A DNA stretch of 31,003 nucleotides, taken from Candidatus Sumerlaeota bacterium. GTDB taxonomy: Bacteria > UBP6 > UBA1177. Shown here one piece after another: positions 1,667 to 30,731 of the stretch. The position numbers and the translations under genes were made by a program. The notes below the pieces were generated by a model that saw only the letters and a list, made by a program, of their open reading frames with translations, ran no database searches and had not been told where the DNA came from. Within the stretch, counting starts at the first letter, position 1; each line of letters starts with the position of its first letter. Location of the stretch: NCBI GenBank assembly GCA_007136595.1, contig SLGQ01000158.1, forward strand, positions 1 to 31,003, given 5' to 3'.

Positions 1667-2539
1667 ATGAGACACAGCAGATTATCCTTTATTACAGTTA
1701 TTTTAATTGTACTTTTTTCGTTCACTGTTTTCGGTGACGATCTTTTCGATCTGGATTCCGGTTTCGGTTTTTCAGATGAAGAAGAAGACACTCCGTCTTC
1801 ATCAATTTTTGACACAGAGCCGGCTCCGGCTCCTAAGGATGAAGCTAAAGCGGCTCCCAGAACTGCACAACTGCAGATCGGAGAAGCTGCGGCTGACACG
1901 GAAGCTGAGGCAGAGCTTAGAGACCTGAGTGTCGAAAGAAAAAGCAGGATCAAAGTCGTTCAAAGAAAAGAATTTCACAAAGATGGTCGTTTTGAGATCG
2001 GAATCGATGCCGGAATGATCAGTGGTGACTGGGAAGGCGTCCTTGTTGTCGGTGCCAGAATGGCTTATCACTTCAACGAATACCTTGCTCTTCAGGGAAG
2101 ATTTCTCTATGGAGCGGTATCATGGGAGAACGAAACACTTAAACAGGCTGATGAAGCAGATGCTTATGTCGCAAAGAGCAACATGACCATGGCTGGCGGT
2201 TTGTCGCTGGTTTTTTCTCCGATCTACGGAAAGGTCAGCCTTTTCGGAGATATTATTCCCAAGTACGATATTAATATATCGGCAGGTGGATATTTCTATC
2301 AGACCAAAGCTGAAGACAAAAACCAGAGTGTCAGACCTTTGACAAACAACAACGGTGCTTTTCAGATCGGTTTTGCTCCAAGAATATTCCTTGGCAAGAA
2401 CGCAAGTCTCAGTGTCTGTTCCGACTGGTTCATAATGAAAGATACCCGTCCCAGACAGGAAGGAGGAAATACTAAATACCTTAAGTCAGACTTCATGGTT
2501 ACATTGAATCTTAGTATGCTTCTTCCCTTTGATAGATAA
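1667..2539 (+). CDS. Outer-membrane beta-barrel protein, GltA/GltB (NfsA/B)-like
   Basis: Signal peptide, acidic N-terminal linker, motif RIKVVQRKEFHKDGRFEIG, alternating beta-strands, ends LSMLLPFDR. Lies directly upstream of gltC-like. Confidence 0.75.
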   Translation: MRHSRLSFITVILIVLFSFTVFGDDLFDLDSGFGFSDEEEDTPSSSIFDTEPAPAPKDEAKAAPRTAQLQIGEAAADTEAEAELRDLSVERKSRIKVVQRKEFHKDGRFEIGIDAGMISGDWEGVLVVGARMAYHFNEYLALQGRFLYGAVSWENETLKQADEADAYVAKSNMTMAGGLSLVFSPIYGKVSLFGDIIPKYDINISAGGYFYQTKAEDKNQSVRPLTNNNGAFQIGFAPRIFLGKNASLSVCSDWFIMKDTRPRQEGGNTKYLKSDFMVTLNLSMLLPFDR

Positions 2540-2555
2540 TTTGGGGGTATGTTAA

Positions 2556-4205
2556 ATGAAAAGATTAGTTATACTAATATCTTTTGCGGTTTTTGTTCTG
2601 ATGCTTTTTGCTTCCTGTGCCGAACAGCTTACTGTCCGTGAAAGGGAAATGAGAAGATATGACAGAATAGACCCGAGGATCGTTCAGGGTATGCCTGAAG
2701 CCATAGTCAAGGTCGTGGAAGCGTACAATTCAAGGGATTACTTCACTTCCGCTATAGGTTTCTATGCGATAATGAAAAATGACGAGTGGGACAGATTGCA
2801 TGAAACCGCCAGATACTATTATGCAGAGTCCCTTTTCAGGATAGGGCTTTACCAGCCTGCGGAATATCAGCTTGCTGAGATTCTTTTTGAGGGTCCTGAT
2901 TCTCATTACTTTGTTTCAGCTTTGTTGAAACTTCTTGCCGTTACTTATGAGACGCAAGATGAAAGAGTCCTTTTTGCGATTCTTTCGAATGTCGATTATT
3001 CAGCACTGCCCGCAAAATTTGCGAACGAGCTTACTTATTATATAGGTAAAATACATTTTTATAACGGGCAGGATGATCAGGCACTTCAGATGTTCAGCCA
3101 GGTAAAGGATTACAGTTCTTTTTATCCTAAATCCAGATATTTTATGGGTGTTATACAGGTGAGACAGGAAATGTTCGCTGAAGCTCTGAAAAGTTTTACT
3201 GAAATCAGAGAGATGCCCGATGATAAATATATCGGCGGAGATATTGCTAAGCTGAAAGGAATGGCGGAACTTGCACTCGGACAGCTTTATTATGCAGCTG
3301 CCTGGGCTGTTTCCAGAGATAGAGAAAGAGAAGGTAATCCGCTTGCTCTTTTCAATGTTTCTCTGAACTACTTTACCAATGTGGGAAGAGATAATGAGCA
3401 ATGGTTCGAGTCTCTGTTTGCAAGAACATGGGCATCTTTGATGATATCAAGATTCGATGCTACTCTCGGTACAGTTGTTACATTAAGGTCACCATTCTTT
3501 ACCGACATATATTTTCCTGAGATCAATGTTGTTGAAGCTGTTGCTTACTATAACCTTTGCCAGTATGATGAAGTAAATCGTGTTATCGACTACTTCTTTG
3601 GCATTTATCCGGGTTTCAATGAAAGAATGAACAGCTGGCTTGAAGAGGTTTCAACTAAAACAGGGCTGGATATTTACAGAGAACTTCTCACAATGTATCG
3701 TGATGCACAGAGGGGAGATCCGACACCTTTACCGGAATCTGTTTTGAGAACGATCGTTTATGAGCCTCTTTTTCAGAGAAAGTACAACCACATTAAAGAA
3801 ATAGAAAGAGAGTTCGGAATAATTGAAAACGCTCCGGAAGCTTTCAGGACAAGTGTGATAGCACAGGATATTTCCAAGAAAATGGCTTACCAGCTTGCAA
3901 CATTGAGAGATGAAGCAGGAAGAATGCTTGTTCAAAGAGTTCAGGAACTGAACAATGAACTTGGTCAGCTTATTGCAGATATGGGTGCAATAAGATTTGA
4001 GATGACAGACAGTCAGGTAAGAGTTCTTGAAAAACAGGAAGTTTTTGGAAGAAGAGCTGAAGAAGAGCCGGAAGAAGTTGTAGAAAAAGAAATGAACCCT
4101 TCCGTTCCCGATGGTTACTACTACTGGCCGTTTGACGGTGAATATTGGGAAGATGAACTGGGATATTATTTCTTTCAAGTTGAAAATATATGCAGGGAAC
4201 AATAA
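2556..4205 (+). CDS. gltC: GltC/NfsC-like TPR protein, possible lipoprotein
   Basis: TPR helices (YYYAESLFRIG, YFMGVIQVR); C-terminal signature YYYWPFDGEYWEDELGYY typical of GltC; lipobox-like LFASC. Confidence 0.8.
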   Translation: MKRLVILISFAVFVLMLFASCAEQLTVREREMRRYDRIDPRIVQGMPEAIVKVVEAYNSRDYFTSAIGFYAIMKNDEWDRLHETARYYYAESLFRIGLYQPAEYQLAEILFEGPDSHYFVSALLKLLAVTYETQDERVLFAILSNVDYSALPAKFANELTYYIGKIHFYNGQDDQALQMFSQVKDYSSFYPKSRYFMGVIQVRQEMFAEALKSFTEIREMPDDKYIGGDIAKLKGMAELALGQLYYAAAWAVSRDREREGNPLALFNVSLNYFTNVGRDNEQWFESLFARTWASLMISRFDATLGTVVTLRSPFFTDIYFPEINVVEAVAYYNLCQYDEVNRVIDYFFGIYPGFNERMNSWLEEVSTKTGLDIYRELLTMYRDAQRGDPTPLPESVLRTIVYEPLFQRKYNHIKEIEREFGIIENAPEAFRTSVIAQDISKKMAYQLATLRDEAGRMLVQRVQELNNELGQLIADMGAIRFEMTDSQVRVLEKQEVFGRRAEEEPEEVVEKEMNPSVPDGYYYWPFDGEYWEDELGYYFFQVENICREQ

Positions 4206-4244
4206 TTGATATTGAGTGAAAAACCAGATAAGGGGTTTTGAAAA

Positions 4245-7200
4245 ATGGTTACAAAAAAAACATTATGCACTTTTTTAGTGTTGTTGGCAGTTGTTACTGC
4301 TACAAGTGATTTAGCAGCACAGAGAAAAAGAAGAGAAGTCGATACTTCTACCGGTCCGGCAAGGACTCAGGTGGAAACTGCTACAATAGAGATTGACTCG
4401 AAAGCCATGGAAAAAAGAAATGAAGCCATAAGACAGCTTCAAGAGTTGATCAGGGATTATCCGGAAGGTCCTAGAAAGGCCGAGATATATCGCCGTTTGG
4501 CAGAACTTTACTGGGAACAGTCAAGAGCCACCAGAGGGGCGATAATGGAGGAGTACCAGAGGGAGACCAACAGATATTACGAGCTTAACGATCCCAATCT
4601 TCCTATGCCTGAACTCAACCTTAACCCTGCTTGGGAGTGGAACAATAAAGCCATTGAAATTTGTGACTACATCATCAAAACCTATCCAAATTTTGAAAAT
4701 ATTGATGAAGTTTATTTCTTCATGGCTTCAAACCTCATGGAAGTTGGTCAGCCACTCAGGGCGGTAAGATATTATACACTTGTTGTTGAGAGATTTGAAA
4801 ACTCCAGGTTTGCCGCAGACTCATATTTTGCAATGGGAGAATATTTCTTTGAAAACAACAATGTTTTTAAAGCTATGCCTAATTACAAGGCAATAATTGA
4901 CAAGTTCCCCGACAACAAATTCTACGGATATGCACTGTATAAATATGCTTGGTGTATGTATAATGTCGGTGAATACGAAGAGTCTGTAAAGCTTTTCCAA
5001 CAGGTTGTTGAAGTTGCCCAGAAAATGGTTGGAGCCGATGGAAGAGTGGGAGACCAGGATCTTATGGAAAATGCTCTTAACGATATGGTTGCTCCCTATG
5101 CTGAATCAGGTTCAGTTGACGATGCCGAGAGATACTTTAAAACGATCGTTAAAGAAACAAGATACTTTATTGCAGTTCTCAGAAGACTTGCTGAAATATA
5201 TTTCAGCCAGGACAGGAATGAAGAGGCGATTGTAATTTATAGAAAACTTATTGAGGAAGCCCCCGAAAGACCTGAGGGTCCTACATGGCAGAAACAGATA
5301 GTTGAAAGTTACCAGAAAATGAACAACAAGGATATGGTCAGGAAAGAGATCATAAATCTTGTTAAAAATTATGCTGATCCTAAAGCACCATGGGTACAGG
5401 CAAACAAAGAAGATGAAGTAACCCTTGAAAGTGCGAGGCAGACAGCTGAAACCGCTTTGAGGATCATGACAGTTGACTATCACAATGAAGCAAGGAAGAC
5501 CAATAACAGAGCTACATGGGATATTGTCGCCGAACTTTATCCTATATATCTTGAATATTTTCCAAAGTCAGAAGCTTCTTATGATATGCGTTTTAACTAT
5601 GCAGAGTTTTTGTGGGATCACAAAAAATATTCCGAAGCGGGTGACCAATACCAGATAGTTGCCGACATGAACCCGAAAGGTCACCATTTTGAAAATGCAT
5701 CTTTTGGAGCAGTAAGTTGTTTCGGTATGTTGCTTGAAGCTGAGCAGAAAAAAGCGGAAAATCTTGCCAAACAGAGAATGGCGGAATCAAGGAAACAGGG
5801 TGCTGGTGAGATCCAATCTGACAGAGTTGCTCTTGCTGATGAAAAAGCGGATGTTAAAAAAGAAGAAATTGAAGATCAGTTTAAGCCGCAACCGATCCCT
5901 GATCTTCATCAGAGATTTATAAATGCTACAGAAACATATATCAGAAACATTCCCAGATCGAAATATTTGGTTGATATCATTTATAAACAGGCTATAACAT
6001 ACTACAGTTTCAATCATTTTGATAAAGCTGTGCCAAGTTTTGAAATGATAGTTCAGAAGCACCCCAGACACAATCTTGCTGTTTATGCCGCTGACCTCAT
6101 AATGGACTCTCTTAACATGACAAGAGACTGGGAAGCCATTAACAGTAAAGCCCGTGAAATGCTTCGTAACTCTGCCCTTATTTCAGGAAGGAACAGGTTG
6201 AGGAATGACCTTGAAAGTTTTAAGGAAATGGCATCGTTCTATTCTTCTGAAATTCCTGCGCAAGGTAAAAGATATCTTGAGTCGGCTGACAGATACATGG
6301 CTTTTGTAACTGAATTCCCGAGGTCAAAATTCAATGATGTGGCAAAGTTCAATGCCATTGTTTATTACCAGAGGGGAGGAGATCTTTACAGGTCGATAAG
6401 AGTTCAGGAACAGTTCCTCAGAGAGACAGGTGAAGTTTATGTGAAATCCGGTTTGCGCGACAGGATCATGTTCGGGCTTGCAAGAAACTACGAGGCAATT
6501 GCTGAGTATGACAGGGCGGCAAGACTGTATGTTGATTTTGTTGAACAATCTCCTGACAGCAAAGATGCAAAGGATGCAATATTTAACGCCGCTGTTCTTT
6601 TTGAAGCAATCGGTGACACCGAAAGAGCTATAGATAACTATAGGCTTTATGTTGAAAAACATGCAGAAACAGACAAAGAGAAAAGTCAGATAGCGCTTCA
6701 GTACGGTTACATCTGGATGAGAAGAGGTAGAACATTCTACGACCGTGCGGAAAGAGGTTTTGACAGGTTTGTTTCAGATCATCTTGACATTAGAGGACTT
6801 GAGGATTTCTTTTTTATAGATGAAAAAGGTCAAAGAAAAGAGATAACCTCCAATCCAAGTGTAGTTGTTGAGAAGGGTACTCCGAATGTAATTTTTGCTC
6901 TTTACGGAGCAAGAATGAGAATGAACGAGGAGCTTGGCAACAGAGAACAGTTCTATGCAAATGTTGACAAAGTTCTTCAAATATTCAGAGGCGGAGAATT
7001 CAAAGAGAAAGAAGAGATCAACGAAATTTCAAGAGATACTATAGCAAAGGCTATGCTTGCAGAACTTGCTTCTGAATTTAAGGATTTCCTTGAGATAAGG
7101 TTTGATAATATTGAAATAAAACCTAAAATGAAAGGATACGAACTCCTTACATTCGGATTTGATGTTGTTGACGGAGAGATAATACATCACGGAGGTGAAA

Positions 7201-7874
7201 ATCCTGATGATTATCTTACACCTGCTGATAAAAGGAACTTAAGAGCAGCCGCAAAAATTAAAGATGATTTCAATGAGGTTTCCCAGGAAAGGATGACCAG
7301 AAAAATTGAGCTCACTGTTTCTCTTACTGATAAATACGCTAATATTATTGAAGCCACTAAATCTCCGAGATACACTCCGGCAGTTCTTTATCACATAGGT
7401 CGAATTTACAGAGATCTTACCGACCAAATGTTCAATGCACCTGTTGCTCCATGGTTGAGTGAAGCACAGATCGCTGAATATCAGACCTTTCTGCAGGAAA
7501 GAGCTTTCGGAGCACAGAAAAATGCAGTTACCTTTTTTGAGCAGGCGATAGTACAGGGATACAATACCTCTGTTTACAGTGACTGGTTATTGAGAGCAAG
7601 GAAACAGCTGAAATACTTCCCGTTGGTTACTGGTGCAAAATATTATGACGAAAATGAAATAGTTCCGCGTCCGAATATGATAGAGACATCTTCTTTTATC
7701 GGAAGACTTGACAGGAATATTAAATTCCCTGAAATGGACCCGAAGGAAAGAGAAGCCTTGAAAAGGTCTTTGAACAGACCTAAAACAACTACAGTTCAGC
7801 AGGAAGCGGGAACAGAAGAAGCCTCAGAAGTTGTTGAGGAGTCAAAACCTGAAGAAACTGAAACCAGTGAATAG
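4245..7874 (+). CDS. gltD: GltD/AgmU (NfsD)-like large periplasmic TPR protein
   Basis: 1209 aa with signal peptide; KRNEAIRQLQELI...KAEIYRRLAELYWE; many TPR repeats (YFAMGEYFF, YALYKYAWCMYN); position between gltC- and gltE-like genes. Confidence 0.8.
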   Translation: MVTKKTLCTFLVLLAVVTATSDLAAQRKRREVDTSTGPARTQVETATIEIDSKAMEKRNEAIRQLQELIRDYPEGPRKAEIYRRLAELYWEQSRATRGAIMEEYQRETNRYYELNDPNLPMPELNLNPAWEWNNKAIEICDYIIKTYPNFENIDEVYFFMASNLMEVGQPLRAVRYYTLVVERFENSRFAADSYFAMGEYFFENNNVFKAMPNYKAIIDKFPDNKFYGYALYKYAWCMYNVGEYEESVKLFQQVVEVAQKMVGADGRVGDQDLMENALNDMVAPYAESGSVDDAERYFKTIVKETRYFIAVLRRLAEIYFSQDRNEEAIVIYRKLIEEAPERPEGPTWQKQIVESYQKMNNKDMVRKEIINLVKNYADPKAPWVQANKEDEVTLESARQTAETALRIMTVDYHNEARKTNNRATWDIVAELYPIYLEYFPKSEASYDMRFNYAEFLWDHKKYSEAGDQYQIVADMNPKGHHFENASFGAVSCFGMLLEAEQKKAENLAKQRMAESRKQGAGEIQSDRVALADEKADVKKEEIEDQFKPQPIPDLHQRFINATETYIRNIPRSKYLVDIIYKQAITYYSFNHFDKAVPSFEMIVQKHPRHNLAVYAADLIMDSLNMTRDWEAINSKAREMLRNSALISGRNRLRNDLESFKEMASFYSSEIPAQGKRYLESADRYMAFVTEFPRSKFNDVAKFNAIVYYQRGGDLYRSIRVQEQFLRETGEVYVKSGLRDRIMFGLARNYEAIAEYDRAARLYVDFVEQSPDSKDAKDAIFNAAVLFEAIGDTERAIDNYRLYVEKHAETDKEKSQIALQYGYIWMRRGRTFYDRAERGFDRFVSDHLDIRGLEDFFFIDEKGQRKEITSNPSVVVEKGTPNVIFALYGARMRMNEELGNREQFYANVDKVLQIFRGGEFKEKEEINEISRDTIAKAMLAELASEFKDFLEIRFDNIEIKPKMKGYELLTFGFDVVDGEIIHHGGENPDDYLTPADKRNLRAAAKIKDDFNEVSQERMTRKIELTVSLTDKYANIIEATKSPRYTPAVLYHIGRIYRDLTDQMFNAPVAPWLSEAQIAEYQTFLQERAFGAQKNAVTFFEQAIVQGYNTSVYSDWLLRARKQLKYFPLVTGAKYYDENEIVPRPNMIETSSFIGRLDRNIKFPEMDPKEREALKRSLNRPKTTTVQQEAGTEEASEVVEESKPEETETSE

Positions 7875-7886
7875 GGGGACTAAAAT

Positions 7887-9026
7887 ATGAAAAGGATATT
7901 TCTTGTTACAGTTTTTATGGCTGTTCTCTTCGTAGGTGCATGTGCAACGGCACCTAAAGTTGAGGAGAAAGAAGAAAAAGTTGTTGTGGTTGAAAGAAAA
8001 GAACCCAGGGAGCCGGAAGATTGGGCAAAATACTTCACCGAAAAAGGGGCGGAAGCTCTTGAAATAAGAGACGGTAAGGTTGATTTTCCAAATGCCATAA
8101 AGTATTTTGAACGTGCAATTAAAGCGTACCCGACCTCCCCGACACTTTATTATAATTTGGGACTTGTTTACCAGAGAATGGGTAACGACCAGAAAGCTGT
8201 TGAGTACTATAACAAAGCTTTGGAACTTGATCCTAAATATGCAATGCCGGTCATAAACAGAGCTGCCATTTATGCAAACAGGCTCGAATATAATAGAGCA
8301 ATAGAGGTGTGTGAAAATTTTCTAGACAGAGAAAACGACAAAGATGTTGTTGTACTGAGTGCATTAGCCGGTTTTTATCTTCTCAGAGGTGACAACATAA
8401 ATGCCATTCAGTCAGTTAGAAGAATTCTTGTTCAGGATCAGGCAAATGTTGATGCTCTTAAAAACCTCGGTATGATATACTTCCTTAACAGAGACATCGG
8501 TTTGGCTACTATGGTTACTACCAACTCTTATAATTTAAGACCTGATGATGCAGGTATTGCCAACAACCGCGGTGTTCTTTTTTCTGATCAGGGAGATGAT
8601 TCTCTTGCCATGCTCTATTTCGGGAACGCACTGAATAACGATTCTAAAAATGTAAGTGCTAACTTTAATATTGGTGCAATTGCCATGAGATATGGCGATG
8701 CAGAAACAGCTTATGAGAGATTTTCCATTGTGCTTTCTCAGGATCCTGACAATCTTAGAGCCCGTGTTGGACTTGCAATAGCATTAAGAGGACTTTCAAG
8801 ATTTGAAGATGCTGAGAAACAGTATCAGAAAGTTTTGTCAAAGAACCCTAATCATGCAAAAGCAACTTTTAATCTCGGAATTCTTTATTATGACCATATG
8901 AATAAACAAGTTGAAGCAAAAGCATTGTTCAGAAGGTTTATTTCTATTGCAGACGGTATAGATCAAGATCATATCGTTCATAAATATTTGGCTGATAAAG
9001 TTTTTATAAGACCCAAAGAGGACTGA
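7887..9026 (+). CDS. gltE: GltE/AglT-like TPR lipoprotein
   Basis: Lipobox VGAC-ATAP; canonical TPRs (LYYNLGLVYQRMG, ANFNIGAIAMRYGD, ATFNLGILY); synteny. Confidence 0.75.
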   Translation: MKRIFLVTVFMAVLFVGACATAPKVEEKEEKVVVVERKEPREPEDWAKYFTEKGAEALEIRDGKVDFPNAIKYFERAIKAYPTSPTLYYNLGLVYQRMGNDQKAVEYYNKALELDPKYAMPVINRAAIYANRLEYNRAIEVCENFLDRENDKDVVVLSALAGFYLLRGDNINAIQSVRRILVQDQANVDALKNLGMIYFLNRDIGLATMVTTNSYNLRPDDAGIANNRGVLFSDQGDDSLAMLYFGNALNNDSKNVSANFNIGAIAMRYGDAETAYERFSIVLSQDPDNLRARVGLAIALRGLSRFEDAEKQYQKVLSKNPNHAKATFNLGILYYDHMNKQVEAKALFRRFISIADGIDQDHIVHKYLADKVFIRPKED

Positions 9027-9062
9027 TTTTAATGCTTAATAAGTGTAATATGAAAAAATTGG

Positions 9063-9093
9063 TTGAAATTTTTTTTATTCAGTATAGTATAAT
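9063..9093 (+). promoter_or_regulatory. Possible internal sigma70-type promoter before gltF-like
   Basis: TTGAAA (9063-9068) and TATAAT (9088-9093) in a ~110-nt gap; the 19-nt spacer is suboptimal. Confidence 0.35.
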
Positions 9094-9138
9094 AACTGGT
9101 GTACGGTTGTTGAGTTCGGAAATATAGGAGGTTTAGTG

Positions 9139-9405
9139 ATGAAAAAAATCATTGCTTTGGTTATAATGTTTTTATTCTTCGGCATTTTAAGTGCTCAGGA
9201 AGCTGAGACTGATGCTCAGGGAAACATTATCGTTTACAGAGAAAAAACGGTTATTGACTTTGAAGATGTTATGCTTGAAGGTCAAATTAAAAAACCGTCA
9301 GGTTCTTTTCTTATGGATAGAACGAGAACAAGGTTCAACAACCTTATAAATATGAAAGAAGATTTTAATAAAGAACTTGTCAGATCAGTTGACTTGTTAA
9401 ACTGA
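9139..9405 (+). CDS. gltF: GltF/CglF-like small secreted protein
   Basis: GGAGG at 9127-9131 favours ATG 9139; signal peptide; motif KTVIDFEDVMLEGQIKKP...F.NLI.MK.DF. Confidence 0.75.
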   Translation: MKKIIALVIMFLFFGILSAQEAETDAQGNIIVYREKTVIDFEDVMLEGQIKKPSGSFLMDRTRTRFNNLINMKEDFNKELVRSVDLLN

Positions 9406-9446
9406 GTTTATGTTTATGTTAACCAATATATAAAGAGGCTGGAGCT

Positions 9447-11509: not shown

Positions 11510-11521
11510 GCTATATATCAA

Positions 11522-12331: not shown

Positions 12332-12341
12332 AAAGTTGCCT

Positions 12342-12369
12342 TTGCAATAATATTTTTATAAAATATTCT
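12342..12369 (+). promoter_or_regulatory. Possible sigma70-type promoter for cassette 2
   Basis: TTGCAA (12342-12347), 16-nt spacer, TATTCT (12364-12369), upstream of the G-run RBS at 12383-12387. Confidence 0.3.
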
Positions 12370-12390
12370 GCGTAAAACTAAAGGGGGTTC

Positions 12391-20334: not shown

Positions 20335-20382
20335 GAAGAAACGGGGGTAAATGATGCTGAATGATTTGAATAAAAATAAAAA

Positions 20383-20700: not shown

Positions 20701-20728
20701 GAATATTTATTTTTTTTTGGAGGTTACT

Positions 20729-21367: not shown

Positions 21368-21396
21368 TTAACCGATTGTAAACCGGAGGACAGCCA

Positions 21397-21948: not shown

Positions 21949-21959
21949 GGGGGGATGAT

Positions 21960-22535: not shown

Positions 22536-22547
22536 TTTGTTTTTATG

Positions 22548-22582
22548 GGCCGGTGCTGTTTACAGTGCCGGCCGGTTGTTTT
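22548..22582 (+). terminator. Intrinsic terminator after the motor genes
   Basis: 11-bp stem GGCCGGTGCTG / CAGTGCCGGCC (two G-U pairs), loop TTTA, followed by GGTTGTTTT. Confidence 0.65.
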
Positions 22583-22605
22583 GATATGAATTGAAAAATT
22601 ATAAT
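22576..22605 (+). promoter_or_regulatory. Possible promoter for gltG2 and downstream genes
   Basis: TTGTTT (22576-22581), 18-nt spacer, TATAAT (22600-22605); RBS AGGGAG at 22615-22620. Confidence 0.35.
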
Positions 22606-22626
22606 CGTGTTCTCAGGGAGTTTTAG

Positions 22627-24000
22627 ATGGCTCAGGAAAATATAGCAAAGGTGCTTAGAGTCGGAGTTATTTACAACGGCAAAATTTTGGATGAACAAAT
22701 ATTCAGAAAACCGGAGACGGTATTTGTCGGTGATTCAGAAAAATCTCATTTTGTAGTTCCTTCTTCCTCACTCCCTTCGAAGTTTCCCATATTTTACTTT
22801 AAATCAGGTCGGTATGAGCTTGTCATTATGGAAAATATGACAGGTAAAGTATTTCTTAAAGGTAAGGTTGTTGTAATTGAAGAAATTATCAAAAAAGGAA
22901 TGCTTAAAAAAAGAGGTGGAGCCTATATCCTCCCTCTTTCTCAGGACTCAAGAGGAAAAGTAATGGTGGGAAGTGCGATCGTACTTTTTCAATTTATAAC
23001 ACCACCGCCCAGACCGCCTAAATTAAAGTTGCCCAAATCAATAAGAGGGTCGTGGACTCAAAGACTTGACTGGCCCTTTCTTTCCATATTATCGGTATCT
23101 TTAATAAGCGGTTACTTGTTTTTCGGGGTTTATGTTCCGGGAGTTCCGGTTCCTGAATTTAATATTGCATCAGTGCCGAATAGGTTTGCTGAACTTATAG
23201 TTCCAGATCTTGATGCACTGAGAACGATGGAGGAAAAAGAGGTTGCCGTGGAAGAAACTGACACAGGCACCCAGGTAGCAGCGGCACAGGAAGAAAAAGC
23301 CCCTGCTAAGGAAGAAGTTAAAAAACCTGATCAACCTAGAGACAAAGCCACTATACAGAAAGAAGAGTCAATAAGAAAAGCGGAAATTCAGAAGAAAGTC
23401 GCAGGGAAAGGGCTTTTGAGAATTATCGGTTCAGTTGGTGGTGAAGGTGGAAGCGGTGATGTTGTAGCCGATGTTCTTGGAGATGGAGGCAGAGACAGAG
23501 ATATTGATACTGCACTTGCAGGTATTAAGCAGATAGGAGTCGCTACCAGCTCAACACAGAGAAGCAGGAAAGGGGATGCCGATGCTACAGAAACTGTCAG
23601 AATGGAAGGGCTTGATGTTAAAGAATCTTCCGGAAAGGTTGGTGTTGCAGCTAAAAAAGAAAGGGCTGTAGTAGCAAAAACAACAGTTGAGGCCCCACAA
23701 GTTGACGGGGCAGTTGACTCTAACAGCATTTCACAGTTGGTAAGAAGGAATCAGGCTGCTGTAAGGCGTTGTTATGAAAGAGAGCTTAACGCTAACCCCA
23801 ACTTGAGAGGCAGGGTTGCGGTCACTATAGTAATAAATGAACAAGGTAGAGTTCAGATGGCGGATGTTACAGCAGATACTGTTGGAAATGCTGCTGTCAG
23901 AAGTTGTATTATAGGAGTTGTGAACAGATGGAGATTTCCCAGTCCGGAAGGTGGTCCCGCAAGTATAACCATTCCATTTGTTTTTTCAGCTTCCAACTAG
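22627..24000 (+). CDS. GltG paralog (AgmX/PglI C-terminal, TonB-like)
   Basis: N-terminal LRVGVIYNGKILDEQIF...VFVG domain, TM at LDWPFLSILSVSLISGYLFF, TonB_C-like ISQLVRRNQAAVRRCYEREL...RWRFPSPEGGPASITIPFVF. Confidence 0.85.
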   Translation: MAQENIAKVLRVGVIYNGKILDEQIFRKPETVFVGDSEKSHFVVPSSSLPSKFPIFYFKSGRYELVIMENMTGKVFLKGKVVVIEEIIKKGMLKKRGGAYILPLSQDSRGKVMVGSAIVLFQFITPPPRPPKLKLPKSIRGSWTQRLDWPFLSILSVSLISGYLFFGVYVPGVPVPEFNIASVPNRFAELIVPDLDALRTMEEKEVAVEETDTGTQVAAAQEEKAPAKEEVKKPDQPRDKATIQKEESIRKAEIQKKVAGKGLLRIIGSVGGEGGSGDVVADVLGDGGRDRDIDTALAGIKQIGVATSSTQRSRKGDADATETVRMEGLDVKESSGKVGVAAKKERAVVAKTTVEAPQVDGAVDSNSISQLVRRNQAAVRRCYERELNANPNLRGRVAVTIVINEQGRVQMADVTADTVGNAAVRSCIIGVVNRWRFPSPEGGPASITIPFVFSASN

Positions 24001-24022
24001 GATAATTTAGGGAGGTGCCGCT

Positions 24023-24709
24023 ATGACAAATAAAAGAAACATATTTACGTTGCTTTTTGTTATGCTGGCAGTGGTTTTTGTTTTTGCAGAAGAAGAAGAA
24101 AAGTTATCTGAAAGGGAAATGATAAGAGAAACTGATAAGTTGGCTGGAAAGATTTTAGAAATAGAGAAAACAATTGATAATCTTAGACAGGAATCTGTAA
24201 AAGAAAGAGATATCAGGTGGCAAGTTTGTCTTGACGACCATCTCGGCAATGTAAAAGGTGTTGCAGCAAGTGCTGTTGCAGCTCAAACAAGGCTTAAAGA
24301 CTTAATGAAGGCCGGAAAACCCGAAGATGCCTACAGCCAGTTGATATTATTGCGGGGACTGGGCGAATCTGCTCAACAGTCAATGAATAATTCCATGTCA
24401 TGTGAAAGACAGTTGACAAGGGTTAGTTCAGACACTGAAATAATCGTGGAAATTGATAAAGAAATAACAGGAGCTGTAAACGAAGATAGCGTCAGTGATG
24501 CAATGGGTGTTGGGTTTGCTGATGAATTTGTTGCAGACAAAGATAAAAGTGCTGCCTCCGGTTCAGGAATTGCTGATGCTGCCGGAGTTGACAGAAGTGA
24601 TGTTCCGGCGGAATCTCCGGAAACAGGTGGCGGAACGACAGGGTCAGAAGCAGAGGCGATCGGATATGTGGATGTTCCTGATGTTGTTGATGCCAGCCCG
24701 ACAAGATAA
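24023..24709 (+). CDS. Secreted helical protein with a Cys pair, unknown function
   Basis: AGGGAGG RBS; signal peptide; helical region with RWQVCLDD and SMSCERQ; low-complexity acidic tail ending VDASPTR. Confidence 0.7.
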   Translation: MTNKRNIFTLLFVMLAVVFVFAEEEEKLSEREMIRETDKLAGKILEIEKTIDNLRQESVKERDIRWQVCLDDHLGNVKGVAASAVAAQTRLKDLMKAGKPEDAYSQLILLRGLGESAQQSMNNSMSCERQLTRVSSDTEIIVEIDKEITGAVNEDSVSDAMGVGFADEFVADKDKSAASGSGIADAAGVDRSDVPAESPETGGGTTGSEAEAIGYVDVPDVVDASPTR

Positions 24710-24733
24710 AGTTTTGTATTAGGAATAAAGGTT

Positions 24734-26176
24734 ATGTTAGATTTGATCAGAAAAGTGGTTGTTGTTTTAAAGTGCCAAGCTTTTTTAACTGGATACATAT
24801 TGTTTATTTTAGTTTTGATACCTTCAGAGATGCTCGGTGAACAGCAAAAAGGATTTGCAATTGCAGAAAATACCGTGCTTAATGTAGGGCTTTCTATTTC
24901 CCCTGAATTTGAGTCCAATATCACAAGAGCTTCAAAAAAATCATATACGGAAGATGTTTTGAATGATCCCGGCAACAGAAGGTCAATGGGTCCGTACTAT
25001 GACCTGATAATGCATTACTCCCCTTCTTTAAGGATCAAACTTGATGACAGCAGTAAAACTGTCGAAGCGACCCTTCTTTTTGATTATAATCACTATCTCG
25101 GTCTTGATGACTCTGCATCGTCAAAAAGGCTTTCCGACCTCGATATTAAATCCAATCTTCTTGGTGAGTTCTATAAAAACAACATTGTCGGTTTTGAGTT
25201 TACTAATGCTTTTTCCAGAACAGCCAATCCGGAAGGGCAGGATCTCACAGGAAGACACAAAAATATTTACGACAGTTTCAAGCTTGCTTTGAATCTTAAA
25301 AATTTACATGAAACTCTTTACATGAAAGTTCAGGGTGGTGTTGACATAAACTACTTTGAAGACTCCAAAAACAATCCCAGATACAAAGATTATAATTATT
25401 ATTCCCTTGTAGGAGAACTCTTCGGAAGATGGAAATTCCTTCCAAGAACCATGATGTTTGTAAGGGGATCTTACAGGTTTCAGGACTACTATGAATCAAG
25501 TCTCCGTTCTGAGTCCCGCTCAATGCCGATAAATGCTTTTGCCGGTTTAATGGGGCAGGTGACACCTATGTTTTCAGCTAAGCTTTCAGGTGGATATTCT
25601 GCTTCGTTGGGGAACAACAACAAGCACGACTATAATGCAAATGCAGAGTTGATATATAAATATCACGACAGCACATTGATCAGCGTTGGCTACTTGAAAA
25701 ATCTAAGGCCGTCTCCCCACTATCAATACTATTCAACTCACCGTATTTACACAAAAGCACAACAGAAGTTCGCAAGAAATTTTCTTGCTAAACTCGATGC
25801 AGGATTTTCATTCATAGGATACGGAGAAAGCGTTGAGTTTATGAATGATTATACTTATGATGAAGCTGGTGGTTACTACGAAAGAGATACTTCAGGAATT
25901 GATGGGGGTACGATGGTACACTTGGTAACAGTTCCTGACTCAAGAAGAAAAGATAAGCTTCTTCGAATAAATCCTTCTCTGTCATATAATATACTTTACT
26001 GGCTTGGTCTAAAACTCTCTTATGAGTTTGAGTACAGGATGTCCAACTTCAACAGAGAAACCCACATTACCTGGACAGATGATGTTAACTCCGATAGAGA
26101 TTATGAAAGAAGAACAGTTACCCACTATGATTTTATGAATCACAAAGTACTTTTTACTCTTTCTGTTGATTATTAA
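24734..26176 (+). CDS. OM beta-barrel partner of the OPX protein (EpsX/ExoB/Wzp-like)
   Basis: Long N-terminal hydrophobic signal, many amphipathic strands rich in Tyr/Asn/Ser, ends VLFTLSVDY; TAATG overlap with the OPX gene. Confidence 0.7.
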   Translation: MLDLIRKVVVVLKCQAFLTGYILFILVLIPSEMLGEQQKGFAIAENTVLNVGLSISPEFESNITRASKKSYTEDVLNDPGNRRSMGPYYDLIMHYSPSLRIKLDDSSKTVEATLLFDYNHYLGLDDSASSKRLSDLDIKSNLLGEFYKNNIVGFEFTNAFSRTANPEGQDLTGRHKNIYDSFKLALNLKNLHETLYMKVQGGVDINYFEDSKNNPRYKDYNYYSLVGELFGRWKFLPRTMMFVRGSYRFQDYYESSLRSESRSMPINAFAGLMGQVTPMFSAKLSGGYSASLGNNNKHDYNANAELIYKYHDSTLISVGYLKNLRPSPHYQYYSTHRIYTKAQQKFARNFLAKLDAGFSFIGYGESVEFMNDYTYDEAGGYYERDTSGIDGGTMVHLVTVPDSRRKDKLLRINPSLSYNILYWLGLKLSYEFEYRMSNFNRETHITWTDDVNSDRDYERRTVTHYDFMNHKVLFTLSVDY

Positions 26177-26808
26177 TGACTGTAATGAAGTTCCTCATAT
26201 TCATTTCCCTTACATCCATCTTTCTTGTATCCTGCACTATAAAAGTCGGTGATAAACCCGTTGAAAGAAGTGAAAGTGGTGGATATATATCGAAAACATC
26301 TGAAAGTGATGGAGATATTTTTTCTTCAATAGGTCCCGGAGATGTGCTGAGGATCACTGTTTATGGAGAAAGTGACCTGTCCGGAGAATATCAGGTGAGC
26401 CTTAACAGATCTATAATGTTTCCTTTTATAGGAGAAATATCTGTAGAAGGGTTGAATAATATCACTCTGGCATCAGAAATTGCTGCAAGATTAAGAGAAG
26501 GATACCTTGTGAACCCTCAGGTGACTGTTTTTACACAAGAGTTTGTCAGCAAAAGGATATTTGTTCTCGGGCAAGTTAAAAAATCAGGCAATTTCCCAAT
26601 GAGAAATGAAATGAGCGTTATCGAAGCAATTTCTCTTGCCGGTGGATTTACAAACATGGCAGACCTGAATAATGTAGTTGTTACGAGAAAAGAAACAGGG
26701 AGAGAGATCAGGATCGTAGTGAATATAAGGTCGATAGTTAACGGGCAGGAAGAGAATTTTTATCTTAAGCCCGGAGATATAATATATGTCCGAGAAAGGT
26801 TTTTCTAG
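26176..26808 (+). CDS. wza: Short OPX/Wza-family polysaccharide export lipoprotein
   Basis: Lipobox LVSC; Poly_export motif IGPGDVLRITVYGE...FPFIGEISVEG...YLVNPQVTV; one SLBB domain (VLGQVKKSG...AISLAGG...LKPGDIIYV); no C-terminal OM helix. Confidence 0.9.
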   Translation: MTVMKFLIFISLTSIFLVSCTIKVGDKPVERSESGGYISKTSESDGDIFSSIGPGDVLRITVYGESDLSGEYQVSLNRSIMFPFIGEISVEGLNNITLASEIAARLREGYLVNPQVTVFTQEFVSKRIFVLGQVKKSGNFPMRNEMSVIEAISLAGGFTNMADLNNVVVTRKETGREIRIVVNIRSIVNGQEENFYLKPGDIIYVRERFF

Positions 26809-28955
26809 TGTATGAGAAAGAAATTGACATAAAGCAACTGCTATCTCTTTTAAGGAAACATCTTCCTGTTTTTATCGGGGTGATAATTGTAATTCTTGTT
26901 CTCACCTATGTTTATATTCAGAGATCTCCGGTAATATATTCGGCTGTCGCGACAGTTGAGATAGAGCCCAGATCTGCTGACATTCTGGGTGGCGGAATGG
27001 AGATAGTGTCTGCCGGAACACAGGGATCTTACTGGTCCAACAAGGAGTACTATGCAACTCAATATGAAATTATTCAAAGCCGCATTGTAAGCCAGAAAGT
27101 CATAGATATGATCCCTGAAGGCAGTGTCCTTAATTTTTTTGGTATTGATCCGTCATCTTTTGAGGATCCTTCAAGGTTGGAAAGGATCGATCCCGTTAGA
27201 ATGCTGCAGGGAAAGATAACTGTTGCGCCACAGAAAAACAGCAATATTGTAAGAATAAGCATAAATGATACCGACCCCGAAAAGGCGGCATTCCTGGCTA
27301 ACAGTGTTTCTTCCGCATACATAGATTTTAACTTGGAAAAAAGGTATGTAGCTACCAGAGAAGCCGCAGTATGGCTGGCTGACCAGAGTGTTAATTTAAA
27401 AAATGAACTTGAAACATCCGAGCTTGAGCTGTTTAACTTTAAAGATGAAAACAACATACTTGCCACAACTTTTGAAGACAGACAGAGTGTTCTTTCAAAA
27501 AGGATCGAAACTCTCAACAATATTCTTACAACACAGGATATTAAAAGAAATGCTTTGATGGCAAAAATGGAAGAGTACCGGAAAATTGATTTTGATGACC
27601 CTGAAGGGGGGTATTTAAAAGATATAGCCAAAGATAACCGGATAGTTTATGATTTGAGGATTAAATATCTGCAAGCACTTTCAAAATATAAAGAAAATGA
27701 GAGTATTTATGGGGAGAAACATCCTAAACAACAAGTTATTTCAGCAGAAATAAACAAAATAAGTTCTCTTTTAAGAGATGAACTTGCCAGTGTTGTGCAA
27801 AGTCATGAAATCGAGTTGAGAACATTGGAAAATGAAATAAGAAAAAACCGTAAAATGCTATCCGATGTTCAGTCAGAAGCTATAGGACTTAACAGACTTT
27901 CCATTGACTTTAACAAGTTGCAGAGAGAAGTGAACACGAATCAGAAATTATATGACATTGTTCTTGAAAGGACAAAGCAAGCTGACCTGAGTGCGCTTTT
28001 GAAAAGTAACAATGTAAGGATGATAGATAGAGCAGAAGTTCCGCATTCTCCTATAAAGCCAAGGAAAAGATTGATATTTCTGATAGGGTTGATAGTTGCG
28101 TTCATAGCCGGGTTTCTTTCGATAATTCTTATAGAGTTTCTTGAAACCAGATTCAGGGATTTTGATGAGCTGGAAAAAGCCTCAAAGAAATCGATTCTCG
28201 GTGTTGTTCCCAAATTTAAAGGTGAAGCAGGGGCTGAGAATGTTCCCGCTGAAATAGTTTTTGAATACAGCGATCAATTTGCCGCCATTGAAGCATTCAG
28301 GACCTTGAGAACCAACATAAAGCTTGGTAATCCAGACAAAGAAATGAAAAAGATACTTGTTACAAGTGCCCTTACAAAAGAAGGAAAGACAGTTCTTTCT
28401 GTAAATATCGCAGCAAGTTATGCTCTGGCAGGTAAAAAGGTTGTAATTGTTGATGCAGATATGAGAAAACCGAGGATCCATAAAGTATTTGACATTAAAA
28501 ATGATGTCGGACTTTCAACTGTTGTGATCGGAGAAGTTTCCATTGAAAACGGCATAGATTACGATGTCTATAAAGGTGTTGATGTTCTTACTTCAGGATC
28601 TGTTCCACCTAACCCTGCTGAATTGATAGAATCTAAAAGGTTCAGCGACATAATAGATCAGCTTTCAAAAAAATACGACATAATTGTTATTGACTCGCCT
28701 CCGCTTACCCCTGTGAGTGATGCGGCAACGCTTTCTGTTCTTGTTGACGGTGTCATTCTTGCAATAAACATAAATAAGACCCCCAGAGATCTTTACAGAT
28801 CGGCTGTTGAAAAAATATCTAAACCGGGGATCAGATTCCTTGGTACTGTCGTGAATATGCTCGATTTTAAAGATAAAAAAAGGTTTGCATCATACTATCA
28901 GTATTATCACTATGAACAGTATGATTCAAAACCGGAAAAAGGAAAAAGGAAATGA
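26808..28955 (+). CDS. wzc: Wzc-type polysaccharide co-polymerase with fused BY-kinase
   Basis: Two TMs flanking a coiled coil; EAFRTLRTN, Walker A SALTKEGKT, A' IVDADMRKP, Walker B IVIDSPP; C-terminal Tyr cluster SYYQYYHYEQY. Confidence 0.95.
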   Translation: MYEKEIDIKQLLSLLRKHLPVFIGVIIVILVLTYVYIQRSPVIYSAVATVEIEPRSADILGGGMEIVSAGTQGSYWSNKEYYATQYEIIQSRIVSQKVIDMIPEGSVLNFFGIDPSSFEDPSRLERIDPVRMLQGKITVAPQKNSNIVRISINDTDPEKAAFLANSVSSAYIDFNLEKRYVATREAAVWLADQSVNLKNELETSELELFNFKDENNILATTFEDRQSVLSKRIETLNNILTTQDIKRNALMAKMEEYRKIDFDDPEGGYLKDIAKDNRIVYDLRIKYLQALSKYKENESIYGEKHPKQQVISAEINKISSLLRDELASVVQSHEIELRTLENEIRKNRKMLSDVQSEAIGLNRLSIDFNKLQREVNTNQKLYDIVLERTKQADLSALLKSNNVRMIDRAEVPHSPIKPRKRLIFLIGLIVAFIAGFLSIILIEFLETRFRDFDELEKASKKSILGVVPKFKGEAGAENVPAEIVFEYSDQFAAIEAFRTLRTNIKLGNPDKEMKKILVTSALTKEGKTVLSVNIAASYALAGKKVVIVDADMRKPRIHKVFDIKNDVGLSTVVIGEVSIENGIDYDVYKGVDVLTSGSVPPNPAELIESKRFSDIIDQLSKKYDIIVIDSPPLTPVSDAATLSVLVDGVILAININKTPRDLYRSAVEKISKPGIRFLGTVVNMLDFKDKKRFASYYQYYHYEQYDSKPEKGKRK

Positions 28956-29605
28956 TAAAGTATTTTTTTTCATTTTGTCTCTTTATCTTTTTTGTGTCAT
29001 GTGAATCTCCATATATGGTTAGACATCCCGTTTCTGCAGGAGACACATACTATCTTTATGCAACATATTACGGTGATGAATTTGAGGGGAGACAAGCTGC
29101 CGATGGCTCCACATTTTCACAAAGTGAGATGACTTGTGCGGCAAGAGGTTTCCCTTTTGGGACAATGCTTGAAGTCAAATCAATAGCAACAGGAAAAAAA
29201 GTTGTAGTTAAAGTAACCGACAGACCTGGAAAAAATGTAGTTGACCTGTCAAAAGCCGCATTTGAAAAGATAGATGATCTTTCCAAAGGAAAAATAAGAG
29301 TGAAGGTAAAGGTTGTAAAAAGAGGTGCTGCACAAGCTTCTCAAAAAAGAGATCCCGGCAGTGTCCCTGAAAAGGTTTCGGAGCAAAAAACAGGACACTA
29401 CACTTTGCAGGTTTACAGGTTCGGAGATCTTGAAATTGCCAAAGAAATAGAGACTGGTCTTAACCTTGACTGTTATATTTTTGCAAAAGATGGCTTTTAT
29501 TTTGTAAGGTGCGGTAGTTTTACAACCCGAAAGGAAGCTGAACAGTTTAAAAATGAACATTTTTCCGATGAAAAAGATGCAGTTGTCATTGAGATGTCTG
29601 ACTGA
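28952..29605 (+). CDS. rlpA: RlpA-family lytic transglycosylase lipoprotein (DPBB + SPOR)
   Basis: Lipobox FVSC; ATYYG...G...MT....PFGT...VVVKVTDR...VVDLSKAAF; C-terminal SPOR (YTLQV...YFVRCGSFTTRKEAE). Confidence 0.8.
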   Translation: MIKYFFSFCLFIFFVSCESPYMVRHPVSAGDTYYLYATYYGDEFEGRQAADGSTFSQSEMTCAARGFPFGTMLEVKSIATGKKVVVKVTDRPGKNVVDLSKAAFEKIDDLSKGKIRVKVKVVKRGAAQASQKRDPGSVPEKVSEQKTGHYTLQVYRFGDLEIAKEIETGLNLDCYIFAKDGFYFVRCGSFTTRKEAEQFKNEHFSDEKDAVVIEMSD

Positions 29606-30731
29606 TCTTTTTCTTATACTTATACTTCTATTTATATTACCTTTAAATTCCAACGCACAAAACATTGCCGATCTTTTGAAATCCGAAAACTTTACTGAAG
29701 GCTTCAGACCTTACCTCAGGATCGGTATATATGTGGGTGTTGATTCAGCATTGATAGAAGGTGATGCAGAAGTTTTTGATAAAACGGGTAAAGTCGTTGC
29801 CAAGATTCAGGGGAGATATACTCTGAGTGTAAAAAACGGGAAAATCGCCATATCAAACCAGCTTACAAATGGGGATATGATAAAGTTCAAGTCAAAGTTC
29901 GGTCTTATAAAAGTGGGCAAAAGAATGTTCCGCGGCGATATTGAAGTATGGCTCAGAAACGGTAAACTGGTGCTTGTAAATGACCTGAATATTGAAGATT
30001 ATGTCAGAGGTGTCATAAATAAAGAAGTGATCCCGTCATGGCACATAGAAACAAAAAAAGCTCAGGCAGTTCTTGCAAGAACATTTGCTGTTCACCAGAA
30101 AATGTTCAACCCCAGAGACAAGCTCTTTGATCTTGCACCTACAGTCCTTGATCAGGTTTATGACGGTCTGAATCAGGAAGATGTAACTGCAAATCAGGCT
30201 GTTGACTCAACAAGGGGTGAGGTGATAACAATAGGCCATAACGCTGTCAAAATTTATTTTCATTCAACTTGCGGTGGTCGTACCGGCTCTTCGCAGGAAG
30301 TGTGGAAGATGAGAAATGATCACCTTCAGGCGGTTGATTGTCCATATTGCAGCAACTCAAGATTATACAGATGGAAAAGAGTTTTAAAGAGCAGTTTTCT
30401 CACCGAAAGATTTAAAGCGGCTGGAGCTAAGGTTGGAAATGTAAATAATATTTCAACAAAAAGGGGAGCTACAAGAGTTGATTCAGTTATAGTGAACGGT
30501 CAAAGTTTTCCTGTGAATAGATTCAGAGAAATAGTTGGATTTTCAACGATATGGTCAAATGATTTTACTGTTAAAAAACAGGGCTCCAATTTTGTTTTTG
30601 AGGGTAAAGGTGCAGGACACGGGGTAGGGGCATGTCAATGGGGAATGGAAGGAATGGCAAGGAAAAACCGGAACTATCGCCAGATACTCATGCATTATCT
30701 GACCGGTGTTGAAATAAGAAAAATGTACTGA
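29568..30731 (+). CDS. SpoIID/LytB-domain peptidoglycan lytic transglycosylase
   Basis: LVNDLNIEDYVRGVINKEV (catalytic-type Glu), KAQAVLARTFA, DQVY, YFHSTCGGRT, CPYC, GAGHGVGACQWG. Signal peptide reads from 29568 or 29577; the ORF track starts at 29553. Confidence 0.93.
   Translation: MKKMQLSLRCLTDLFLILILLFILPLNSNAQNIADLLKSENFTEGFRPYLRIGIYVGVDSALIEGDAEVFDKTGKVVAKIQGRYTLSVKNGKIAISNQLTNGDMIKFKSKFGLIKVGKRMFRGDIEVWLRNGKLVLVNDLNIEDYVRGVINKEVIPSWHIETKKAQAVLARTFAVHQKMFNPRDKLFDLAPTVLDQVYDGLNQEDVTANQAVDSTRGEVITIGHNAVKIYFHSTCGGRTGSSQEVWKMRNDHLQAVDCPYCSNSRLYRWKRVLKSSFLTERFKAAGAKVGNVNNISTKRGATRVDSVIVNGQSFPVNRFREIVGFSTIWSNDFTVKKQGSNFVFEGKGAGHGVGACQWGMEGMARKNRNYRQILMHYLTGVEIRKMY

Follow-up and report, generated by a model that had tools for sequence, protein, structure and literature searches.

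The 31,003-bp window analyzed here is the entire contig C182 of a metagenome-assembled genome (MAG; 2.67 Mb in 365 contigs, 91% complete) from a soda-lake metagenome. It carries two cassettes of genes homologous to the glt and nfs genes of Myxococcus xanthus, a single set of AglRQS-like motor genes, and genes for the barrel, lipoprotein and co-polymerase of a polysaccharide translocon. The source is an uncultured bacterium of candidate phylum UBP6, which belongs neither to the Myxococcota nor to the Bdellovibrionota, the only groups in which group A glt genes had been recorded by 2011 (PMC3169522); UBP6 bacteria have been described as anaerobic amino acid fermenters of digesters and the rumen (PMC7382037). 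All 24 genes lie on the + strand in one co-oriented run, the GC skew is positive along the full window, and open reading frame (ORF) listing with Pfam and NCBIfam scans returned the gene order given in a preliminary description of the contig. Genes were assigned by the Pfam and NCBIfam scans and the two small gltF genes of the run by phmmer; comparison with Archangium was by BLASTP. The collection used for comparison contains about 38 UBP6 species genomes, 35 from one order and 3 from a second lineage (family f7). The Glt-type machinery of UBP6 is unrecognized in public annotation, where its proteins are named only hypothetical, TPR repeat, TonB family or AgmX/PglI C-terminal domain-containing proteins.

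Cassette 2 (12391-24000) is of the type represented in M. xanthus by the G4 cluster. Its first gene encodes a secreted 252-aa protein (12391-13149), a homolog of the gene in the MXAN_1924 position, with 41% identity (E 9e-47) to its Archangium counterpart (L066:1930-2736) and with its nearest Atlas clusters from Myxococcota. It is followed by gltC2 (13146-15428; NF033756, E 7e-12; E 2e-51 to the Archangium G4 GltC homolog), gltD2 (15425-18736), gltE2 (18733-20334; NF033758, E 3e-17) and a 105-aa ORF, gltF2 (20383-20700), which matches small genes in the same position of Myxococcota loci with phmmer E values of 1e-9 to 1e-11. The real start of gltF2 may be downstream of the annotated one, near which a promoter-like site is found (20405-20432). 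GltD2, a tetratricopeptide repeat (TPR) protein of 1103 aa, is 34% identical to Archangium G4 GltD and scores 588 bits against it, versus 212 to 233 bits against GltD and NfsD. The last gene, gltG2 (22627-24000), encodes a TonB-like transducer (NF033760, E 8.5e-52) with a TonB_C-like domain (TIGR01352, E 3e-7); it is 36% identical to Archangium G4 GltG (226 bits, versus 86 to 128 bits to GltG and NfsG), and among proteins from other phyla it is matched best by one of 452 aa from Archangium violaceum, at 36% identity.

Between gltF2 and gltG2 lie the motor genes. The AglR-like channel subunit of the MotA/TolQ/ExbB type (20717-21367; PF01618, E 5e-21) shares 45 to 49% identity with the motors of Myxococcota G4-type loci, and is followed by two ExbD/TolR-type subunits (PF02472), one AglQ-like with Asn at the usual Asp position (21397-21948; PAMN motif) and one AglS-like in which the Asp is retained (21960-22535; conserved NSLMD motif). 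We aligned 11 motor sequences from UBP6, lineage f7 and Myxococcota-labeled contigs (including L077, L078, L093, L094, L029 and L033). Asn (P-A/I-M-N) stands in for the canonical proton-binding Asp of the first ExbD-like subunit in all 11 of the G4-type motors aligned, and the second has Asp (N-S-L/M-M-D) in 10 of 10; judged by this alignment, the Asn/Asp asymmetry of the pair is a conserved family trait and not a local mutation. A GC-rich hairpin with a T-rich tail (22548-22573; 11 pairs, 8 of them G-C) separates the motor genes from gltG2, and a gap of 90 to 130 nt at the motor-gltG junction is also kept in the Myxococcota loci; the hairpin may be an attenuator that sets the stoichiometry of motor to GltG. 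The genome has one AglRQS-like motor set, without a close paralog, and two GltG paralogs; besides the AglR-like gene there are five further MotA/ExbB genes. One motor with two GltG-type sets mirrors M. xanthus, in which a single motor is shared by Glt and Nfs, both GltG and NfsG are binding partners of AglR, and Agl-Nfs acts on the Exo polymer (PMC3858216).

Directly downstream of gltG2 is the gene for a secreted 228-aa helical protein (24023-24709), a homolog of the gene in the MXAN_1917 position. Besides a signal peptide, the protein shows, in alignment and in an AlphaFold2 (AF2) model whose helices span residues 30-125 at pLDDT >90, a bundle of three helices with two invariant Cys and a disordered, acidic tail; its homology to Myxococcota proteins of 174 to 194 aa is remote (hhalign 90%, E 1.5e-6), and its Atlas neighbors are from Myxococcota. 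The next gene encodes a 480-aa WzpB-type outer-membrane beta-barrel of the 18-strand class (24734-26176; E 1e-13 to the Archangium gene in the WzpB position). The AF2 model of the barrel (pLDDT 87.5) gives VIA Z 19-20 to 18-strand Occ porins and AlgE and 14.3 to PgaA; Foldseek on the PDB returned mostly 22-strand TonB-dependent barrels at TM ~0.4, the 18-strand matches being clearer in the Foldseek-independent search. The barrel gene is followed by that of a 210-aa WzaB-like lipoprotein of class 3 in the outer-membrane polysaccharide export (OPX) family (26176-26808; Poly_export and SLBB), 41% identical to the product of the Archangium gene in the WzaB position. Its Pfam domains end at residue 205, so that it consists of PES and SLBB without an outer-membrane-spanning C-terminal helix; the lipobox is LVSC, and the C-terminus (...RERFF) aligns with that of the Archangium protein (...PESFF). 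The C-terminal Phe-Phe of WzaB is the WzpB-binding motif (PMC12819527); a counterpart of the twin-Arg motif (Arg106-Arg107) through which WzaB binds Wzc had no confident position in the alignment. The final component is Wzc (26808-28955; Wzz, GNVR and AAA_31), a PCP-2a polysaccharide co-polymerase with an intact bacterial tyrosine kinase domain that has the Walker A, A' and B motifs (ALTKEGKT, VVIVDAD, IIVID) and 6 Tyr within the last 25 residues; it is the sole strong GNVR protein of the genome. One Wzy_C gene is located elsewhere (C36). A second OPX gene (G000:C193:8533-9021), within a 382-aa open frame, is by its sequence probably of the longer class, and with it the translocon of the window is not the only polysaccharide export route of the organism.

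Cassette 1 (1667-11509) follows the nfsA-H gene order and has no motor of its own. It consists of a GltA/B-like outer-membrane beta-barrel with a signal peptide, syntenic in relatives (1667-2539; TIGR04565 OMP_myx_plus, E 4e-14); GltC1, a periplasmic TPR protein (2556-4205; NF033756 gliding_GltC, E 2e-69); GltD1, a 1209-aa TPR scaffold (4245-7874; 291 and 288 bits by BLASTP to Archangium GltD and NfsD); GltE1, a TPR lipoprotein with a lipobox-like ...VGAC (7887-9026; NF033758, E 2e-33); GltF1, a secreted 89-aa protein (9136-9405; phmmer 2e-17 to Archangium NfsF and 5e-11 to GltF); GltG1, a TonB/TolA-like transducer (9447-10856; NF033760, E 7e-80, model positions 197-648); and a small outer-membrane barrel resembling GltH/CglE (10856-11509; NF033755, E 1e-18). 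GltG1 has one transmembrane segment (148-184) and an AgmX/PglI C-terminal domain, and lacks the first ~196 residues of M. xanthus GltG. Homologs of the core proteins GltC, D, E and G and of the group A genes (A/B barrel, F and H barrel) are thus all present, as the preliminary description had it in listing a GltA/B-C-D-E-F-G-H set; the window has only one GltA/B-type barrel, however, and every score falls below the NCBIfam equivalog cut-off (235 of 450 bits for GltC1, then 116 of 225, 269 of 650 and, for the GltH-like barrel, 67.9 of 70), so that the Glt proteins of the window are homologs and not equivalogs. A search with GltC1 returned UBP6 proteins only, and with them no view of cassette 1 from outside the phylum.

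Maximum-likelihood trees of GltG and GltD, both unrooted, separate the two cassettes. Cassette 1 groups with Archangium Glt and Nfs (support 99/96 in the GltG tree and 100 in the GltD tree, GltD1 and GltG1 both being in the Glt/Nfs clade). Cassette 2 falls in a G4 clade with the Archangium G4 proteins and with Myxococcota loci that possess motor, OPX and Wzc (99/96 for GltG), and the GltD tree has the same split (100). There are, then, two old sister types, Glt/Nfs and G4, each found in both UBP6 and Myxococcota. The G4-type GltG family is large, since 1856 cluster representatives match its profile at E ≤ 1e-30; a narrower search for related loci with a GltG alignment returned UBP6 genomes only. 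In the GltG tree the GltG2 proteins of the main UBP6 order are nearer to Myxococcaceae G4 proteins than to the cassette 2 GltG of lineage f7, a position that could reflect either a horizontal transfer linking UBP6 with Myxococcota or strongly differing rates. Three representatives of the G4-type GltG family (P0216, P0222 and P0237) are ~925-937 aa long with three matched stretches, the full match being in the C-terminal half, and may be fusions.

Within the UBP6 order, AglRQS-GltG2-228aa-480aa-OPX-Wzc-RlpA is colinear in 20 of 20 contigs from four families, and the arrangement is complete over all 30 kb in families f1, f5 and f6. In the sister family f7, genome G037 has GltC-D-E-AglRQS-GltG-barrel-OPX-Wzc-Wzy_C. 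The preliminary description had joined both cassettes, motor, translocon and peptidoglycan enzymes into one machine. The linkage of the motor, the TonB-like transducer and TPR scaffold to barrel, OPX and Wzc is upheld by these genomes and by several Myxococcota lineages. Cassette 1, by contrast, is separable: in G028 (family f3) 172 kb separate it from MurI, the 252-aa gene, cassette 2 and the exporter, which remain together, and lineage f7 has the two cassettes on different contigs. What had been called a super-locus is therefore an arrangement at the level of the order and not one machine.

A survey of Myxococcota synteny extended the linkage of Glt genes to exporter genes from related to distant genomes, so that this synteny is conserved across two phyla. 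Contigs with a GltG 29 to 32% identical to GltG2, whose close relatives are labeled "Bradymonadia bacterium" and "Myxococcales bacterium" at NCBI, show GltC-D-E-F-AglR-Q-S-GltG, a protein of ~180 aa, a barrel of ~450 aa, OPX and Wzc, followed by unrelated housekeeping genes; the same order outside the phylum occurs in P0070, L077, L078, L093 and L147. A barrel profile hits a single gene in each of 114 of 151 GTDB Myxococcota genomes; of the 30 best barrel loci, 26 to 28 have the helical protein, the barrel and OPX as a trio, and 26 have the barrel beside OPX. Of 20 wider Myxococcota regions, 7 have motor and GltG, an insert of ~6.5 kb, then helical protein-barrel-OPX; 3 have the M. xanthus-type mglBA-G4-barrel-OPX; and 1 has AglR-AglQ..barrel-OPX-Wzc. 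With the synteny so conserved, the linkage is more than chance. Across clades the core of GltCDEF, motor, GltG, helical protein and barrel is invariant; OPX and Wzc occur often but not in all. The barrel and the relative of the 228-aa protein stay with GltG even where OPX is missing, which suggests a structural role of the barrel in the G4-type complex. The ~6.5-kb insert between GltG and the helical protein and barrel is seen in many Myxococcota versions (L125-L131); in a "Deltaproteobacteria" MAG (L147:11487-17741) it contains a 312-aa gene, a cyclic nucleotide monophosphate (cNMP)-binding gene and a gene for a 1601-aa FG-GAP beta-propeller protein. On the P0071 contig the FG-GAP protein is present without the barrel.

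The nearest known counterpart is in M. xanthus itself. The Archangium violaceum locus reads mglB-mglA-254aa-GltC-GltD-GltE-89aa-GltG-cNMP-187aa-426aa barrel-203aa OPX. In M. xanthus, MglA and MglB are MXAN_1925 and MXAN_1926 (PMC4316618), the G4 gltD homolog is MXAN_1922 (PMC3169522), and the WzpB and WzaB proteins of the biosurfactant polysaccharide (BPS) translocon are MXAN_1916 and MXAN_1915 (PMC9603273). Because these three sets of locus tags fit the gene order and gene count of Archangium, the M. xanthus G4 cluster (MXAN_1917-1924) has mglBA as its direct neighbor on one side and wzpB/wzaB on the other. The statement in the preliminary description that the M. xanthus genes lie at separate loci consequently holds for Glt, Nfs, Exo and Agl, but not for the G4 cluster, which adjoins wzpB/wzaB. 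The UBP6 window shares with this cluster the order 252aa-GltC-GltD-GltE-GltF-GltG-...-helical protein-barrel-OPX, the same tree clade, and an OPX protein with lipobox and Phe-Phe. It differs in belonging to another phylum, in that its cluster includes an AglRQS-like motor and its OPX gene is immediately followed by Wzc, and in lacking both mglBA upstream, where MurI is found instead, and the cNMP-binding gene; the partner Wzc of M. xanthus (MXAN_1025) is ~1 Mbp from wzpB/wzaB (PMC7310880). In the accessible literature, which did not include Agrebi et al. 2015, we found no discussion of the adjacency of G4 and BPS export genes, and in the literature searched no mention of MXAN_1917-1924 beyond Luciano 2011. 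Work on OPX proteins and BPS calls wzaB "orphan-like" and leaves its Glt neighbors unmentioned (including PMC9603273 and PMC7310880).

Other known systems resemble the locus in part. The Agl-Nfs/Exo system (MASC) of M. xanthus spores is an AglRQS-powered Glt-like complex that handles the polymer of a class-3 OPX system (PMC3858216), but M. xanthus has no linkage among nfs, exo and aglRQS, the exporter of the window is linked to a G4-type and not to an Nfs-type cassette, and the window has only one A/B-type barrel. The Agl-Glt gliding machinery (clusters G1, G2 and M1) has homologs of GltA/B, C, D, E, F, G and H and of AglRQS in the window; these are below the equivalog cut-offs, GltG1 has a shorter N-terminus, and in the NCBIfam scans the GltJ model matches only a shared C-terminal domain and no protein at full length, no search having been aimed at GltI, GltK or AglZ. 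The Glt "core complex" of Gammaproteobacteria, Fibrobacter and Geobacter (Luciano 2011) is likewise a single locus with motor and GltC/D/E/G, components beside which the module of the window also has GltF, the 252-aa and 228-aa proteins and barrel/OPX/Wzc. As in TonB-ExbB-ExbD, a MotA/ExbB-type stator and a TonB_C-like transducer are encoded beside a large outer-membrane barrel; however, the barrel of the window has no plug and resembles 18-strand Occ/AlgE proteins, transport would be outward, and there are large TPR scaffolds. The components common to Tol-Pal and TonB are all encoded (MotA/ExbB channel, ExbD/TolR and TonB_C transducer), the transmembrane Asp being confined to the AglS-like subunit.

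Peptidoglycan and housekeeping genes flank the module. The MurI glutamate racemase gene (11522-12331; TIGR00067, 240 bits, above the cut-off) precedes cassette 2. The lytic transglycosylase RlpA (28952-29605; DPBB and SPOR) is encoded 3' of Wzc in 20 of 20 contigs of the order, a linkage restricted to this order, as rlpA is unlinked in the Myxococcota loci. Next come a SpoIID-family gene (29553-30731; PF08486, E 3e-22) and, at the 3' end of the window, the start of QueA; SpoIID-QueA follow RlpA except in rumen genus g3, and a second SpoIID copy is on C180. A lytic transglycosylase reportedly connects Glt complexes to peptidoglycan in M. xanthus (eLife 13:RP99273). The proposal of peptidoglycan-opening enzymes as a dedicated part of the system is for that reason not far-fetched, but it finds no support in these data and has been rejected: MurI and RlpA are each the only copy of their genome, SpoIID is variable, and in the Myxococcota loci examined outside UBP6 no peptidoglycan enzymes accompany the module.

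We think it somewhat probable that the window encodes two trans-envelope machines of the Agl-Glt/Nfs family that are driven by the proton motive force (pmf) and served by one AglRQS-type stator, which in module B acts on the translocon and is borrowed by module A. Module B (12391-28955), a conserved unit of the G4 type, comprises the secreted 252-aa protein, GltC2, GltD2 and GltE2 as periplasmic TPR scaffolds, GltF2, the stator, GltG2, the helical protein, barrel, OPX and Wzc. The stator would act, through GltG2 and the TPR scaffold, on the barrel/OPX translocon, the WzpB-type barrel being the outer-membrane end of the module, commonly together with a class-3 OPX and Wzc. Its role could be to assist the export or the surface placement of a Wzx/Wzy-type polysaccharide whose synthesis genes are elsewhere. 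Module A (1667-11509) is a Glt/Nfs-type set that brings outer-membrane barrels but no motor; it probably relies on the stator of module B and may serve cell movement or, like Nfs, polymer spreading. It is from the synteny and from the Agl-Nfs/Exo precedent that we infer energized export or polymer placement; any physical contact, the direction of energy use and the polymer are inferred likewise. A broader proposal, which we put forward only tentatively and hold to be distinctly less probable, is that the G4-type Agl/Glt complex is in general the pmf partner of the WzpB-type barrel/class-3 OPX translocon, and that such motor-assisted export was the original job of the Glt/Nfs family.

Several observations weigh against motor-assisted export. 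In f7, G038 has cassette 2 without an exporter downstream of GltG; three G4-type clades keep GltC-D-E-F-motor-GltG-helical protein-barrel with no adjacent OPX or Wzc, and in one G4-type clade both motor and barrel are missing. The Pfam and NCBIfam scans of the window returned no glycosyltransferase, Wzx or Wzy, although no search was aimed at Wzx, and no PHPT (Bac_transf) gene was detected in the 91%-complete genome. A polar MXAN_1922 mutant has no appreciable motility defect (Luciano et al. 2011, PMC3169522); BPS-deficient M. xanthus mutants, by contrast, lose swarm spreading (PMC7310880; PMC12819527). The MurI and QueA junctions are packed as tightly as those within the cassettes, so that tight spacing by itself is uninformative. 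When 19.5 kb of the locus were compared with a metatranscriptome from the same study, only two small contigs matched perfectly, both in the motor genes (21180-21423 at the AglR-AglQ junction and 22176-22378 inside AglS), which is too little for a statement on operons and may include DNA carry-over.

The strongest competitor, unlikely in our estimate, is a coupling that is functional and not physical: the cassettes would be gliding machines, barrel/OPX/Wzc would secrete a slime or surfactant that they need, and the genes would be linked for co-regulation. Such an arrangement would be in keeping with M. xanthus, in which Glt motility depends on secreted polysaccharide and BPS modulates motility (PMC7310880). 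The genome also contains an MglA homolog (G000:C51:1179-1748, L083; 56% identity to Archangium MglA), but MglB gave no tblastn match in the 91%-complete assembly, the GltJ model is matched only by C-terminal domains, and motility is unreported in these anaerobic fermenters (PMC7382037). Between the motor genes on one side and gltG2 with the exporter on the other lie the hairpin and the gap, which leaves room for several transcription units, and OPX and Wzc are dispensable neighbors in some clades; it is, however, the barrel and the 228-aa-like protein that remain with GltG where OPX is missing, and the M. xanthus G4 mutant glides normally (PMC3169522).

Very unlikely is the view that the genes are neighbors merely by descent, in a compact leading-strand run of envelope and housekeeping genes in which the Glt cassettes are functionally unrelated to the exporter. 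MurI, RlpA, SpoIID and QueA do belong to the same tight run, cassette 1 is separable, and synteny within an order can be mere inheritance. The order GltG-228aa-barrel(-OPX-Wzc) nevertheless recurs in distant lineages with otherwise unrelated flanks, and it survives a ~6.5-kb insertion and the loss of the motor genes in the Myxococcus-type locus; because the synteny crosses phyla, this explanation is strongly disfavored. Least probable of all is that cassette 2 is a Tol-Pal-like system for envelope integrity or division that works with the adjoining MurI, RlpA and SpoIID, the exporter being incidental: GltD1 (94.7 bits) and GltD2 (115 bits) exceed the tol_pal_ybgF cut-off of 90.1 and the MotA/TolQ/ExbB-type motor has two ExbD/TolR-type genes, but the YbgF score is explained by TPR_6 repeats, the closest relatives over the full length are Glt, Nfs and G4 proteins, the peptidoglycan genes are not with the module outside the order, and the other five MotA/ExbB genes are available for Tol and Exb functions.

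Agrebi et al. 2015 reportedly derived the Glt/Nfs machinery from a capsule-assembly system. That proposal lacked a genomic intermediate; with motor, scaffold and exporter united, the UBP6 locus and the corresponding Myxococcota loci provide one. The locus also bears on what the Glt "core complex" and the paralogs G4 and G5 do, an open question since 2011, and the cooperation of class-3 OPX proteins, which have no outer-membrane pore of their own, with a barrel is under active study (papers of 2022-2026). If the G4-type complex is the pmf partner of this translocon, the long-orphan G4 cluster of M. xanthus would gain a function, and the position of wzaB/wzpB 1 Mbp from the BPS synthesis genes would be explained; the hypothesis is sharp and can be tested in the tractable M. 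xanthus. Cassette 1 extends the Glt group A genes (A/B, F and H) to an uncultured phylum of anaerobic habitats.

A promoter scan of the window gave 67 sites versus 49 ± 8 in shuffles, no useful excess. The window opens with a 5'-truncated CarboxypepD_reg/PEGA-type gene (1-1485) with a weak AgmC_N match, whose counterpart at the same position in G005 is 72% identical. Proteins of the PEGA/CarboxypepD_reg kind are likewise encoded next to the G4 locus of Archangium (L066:1-597) and the locus of G038 (L029:1980-3548).

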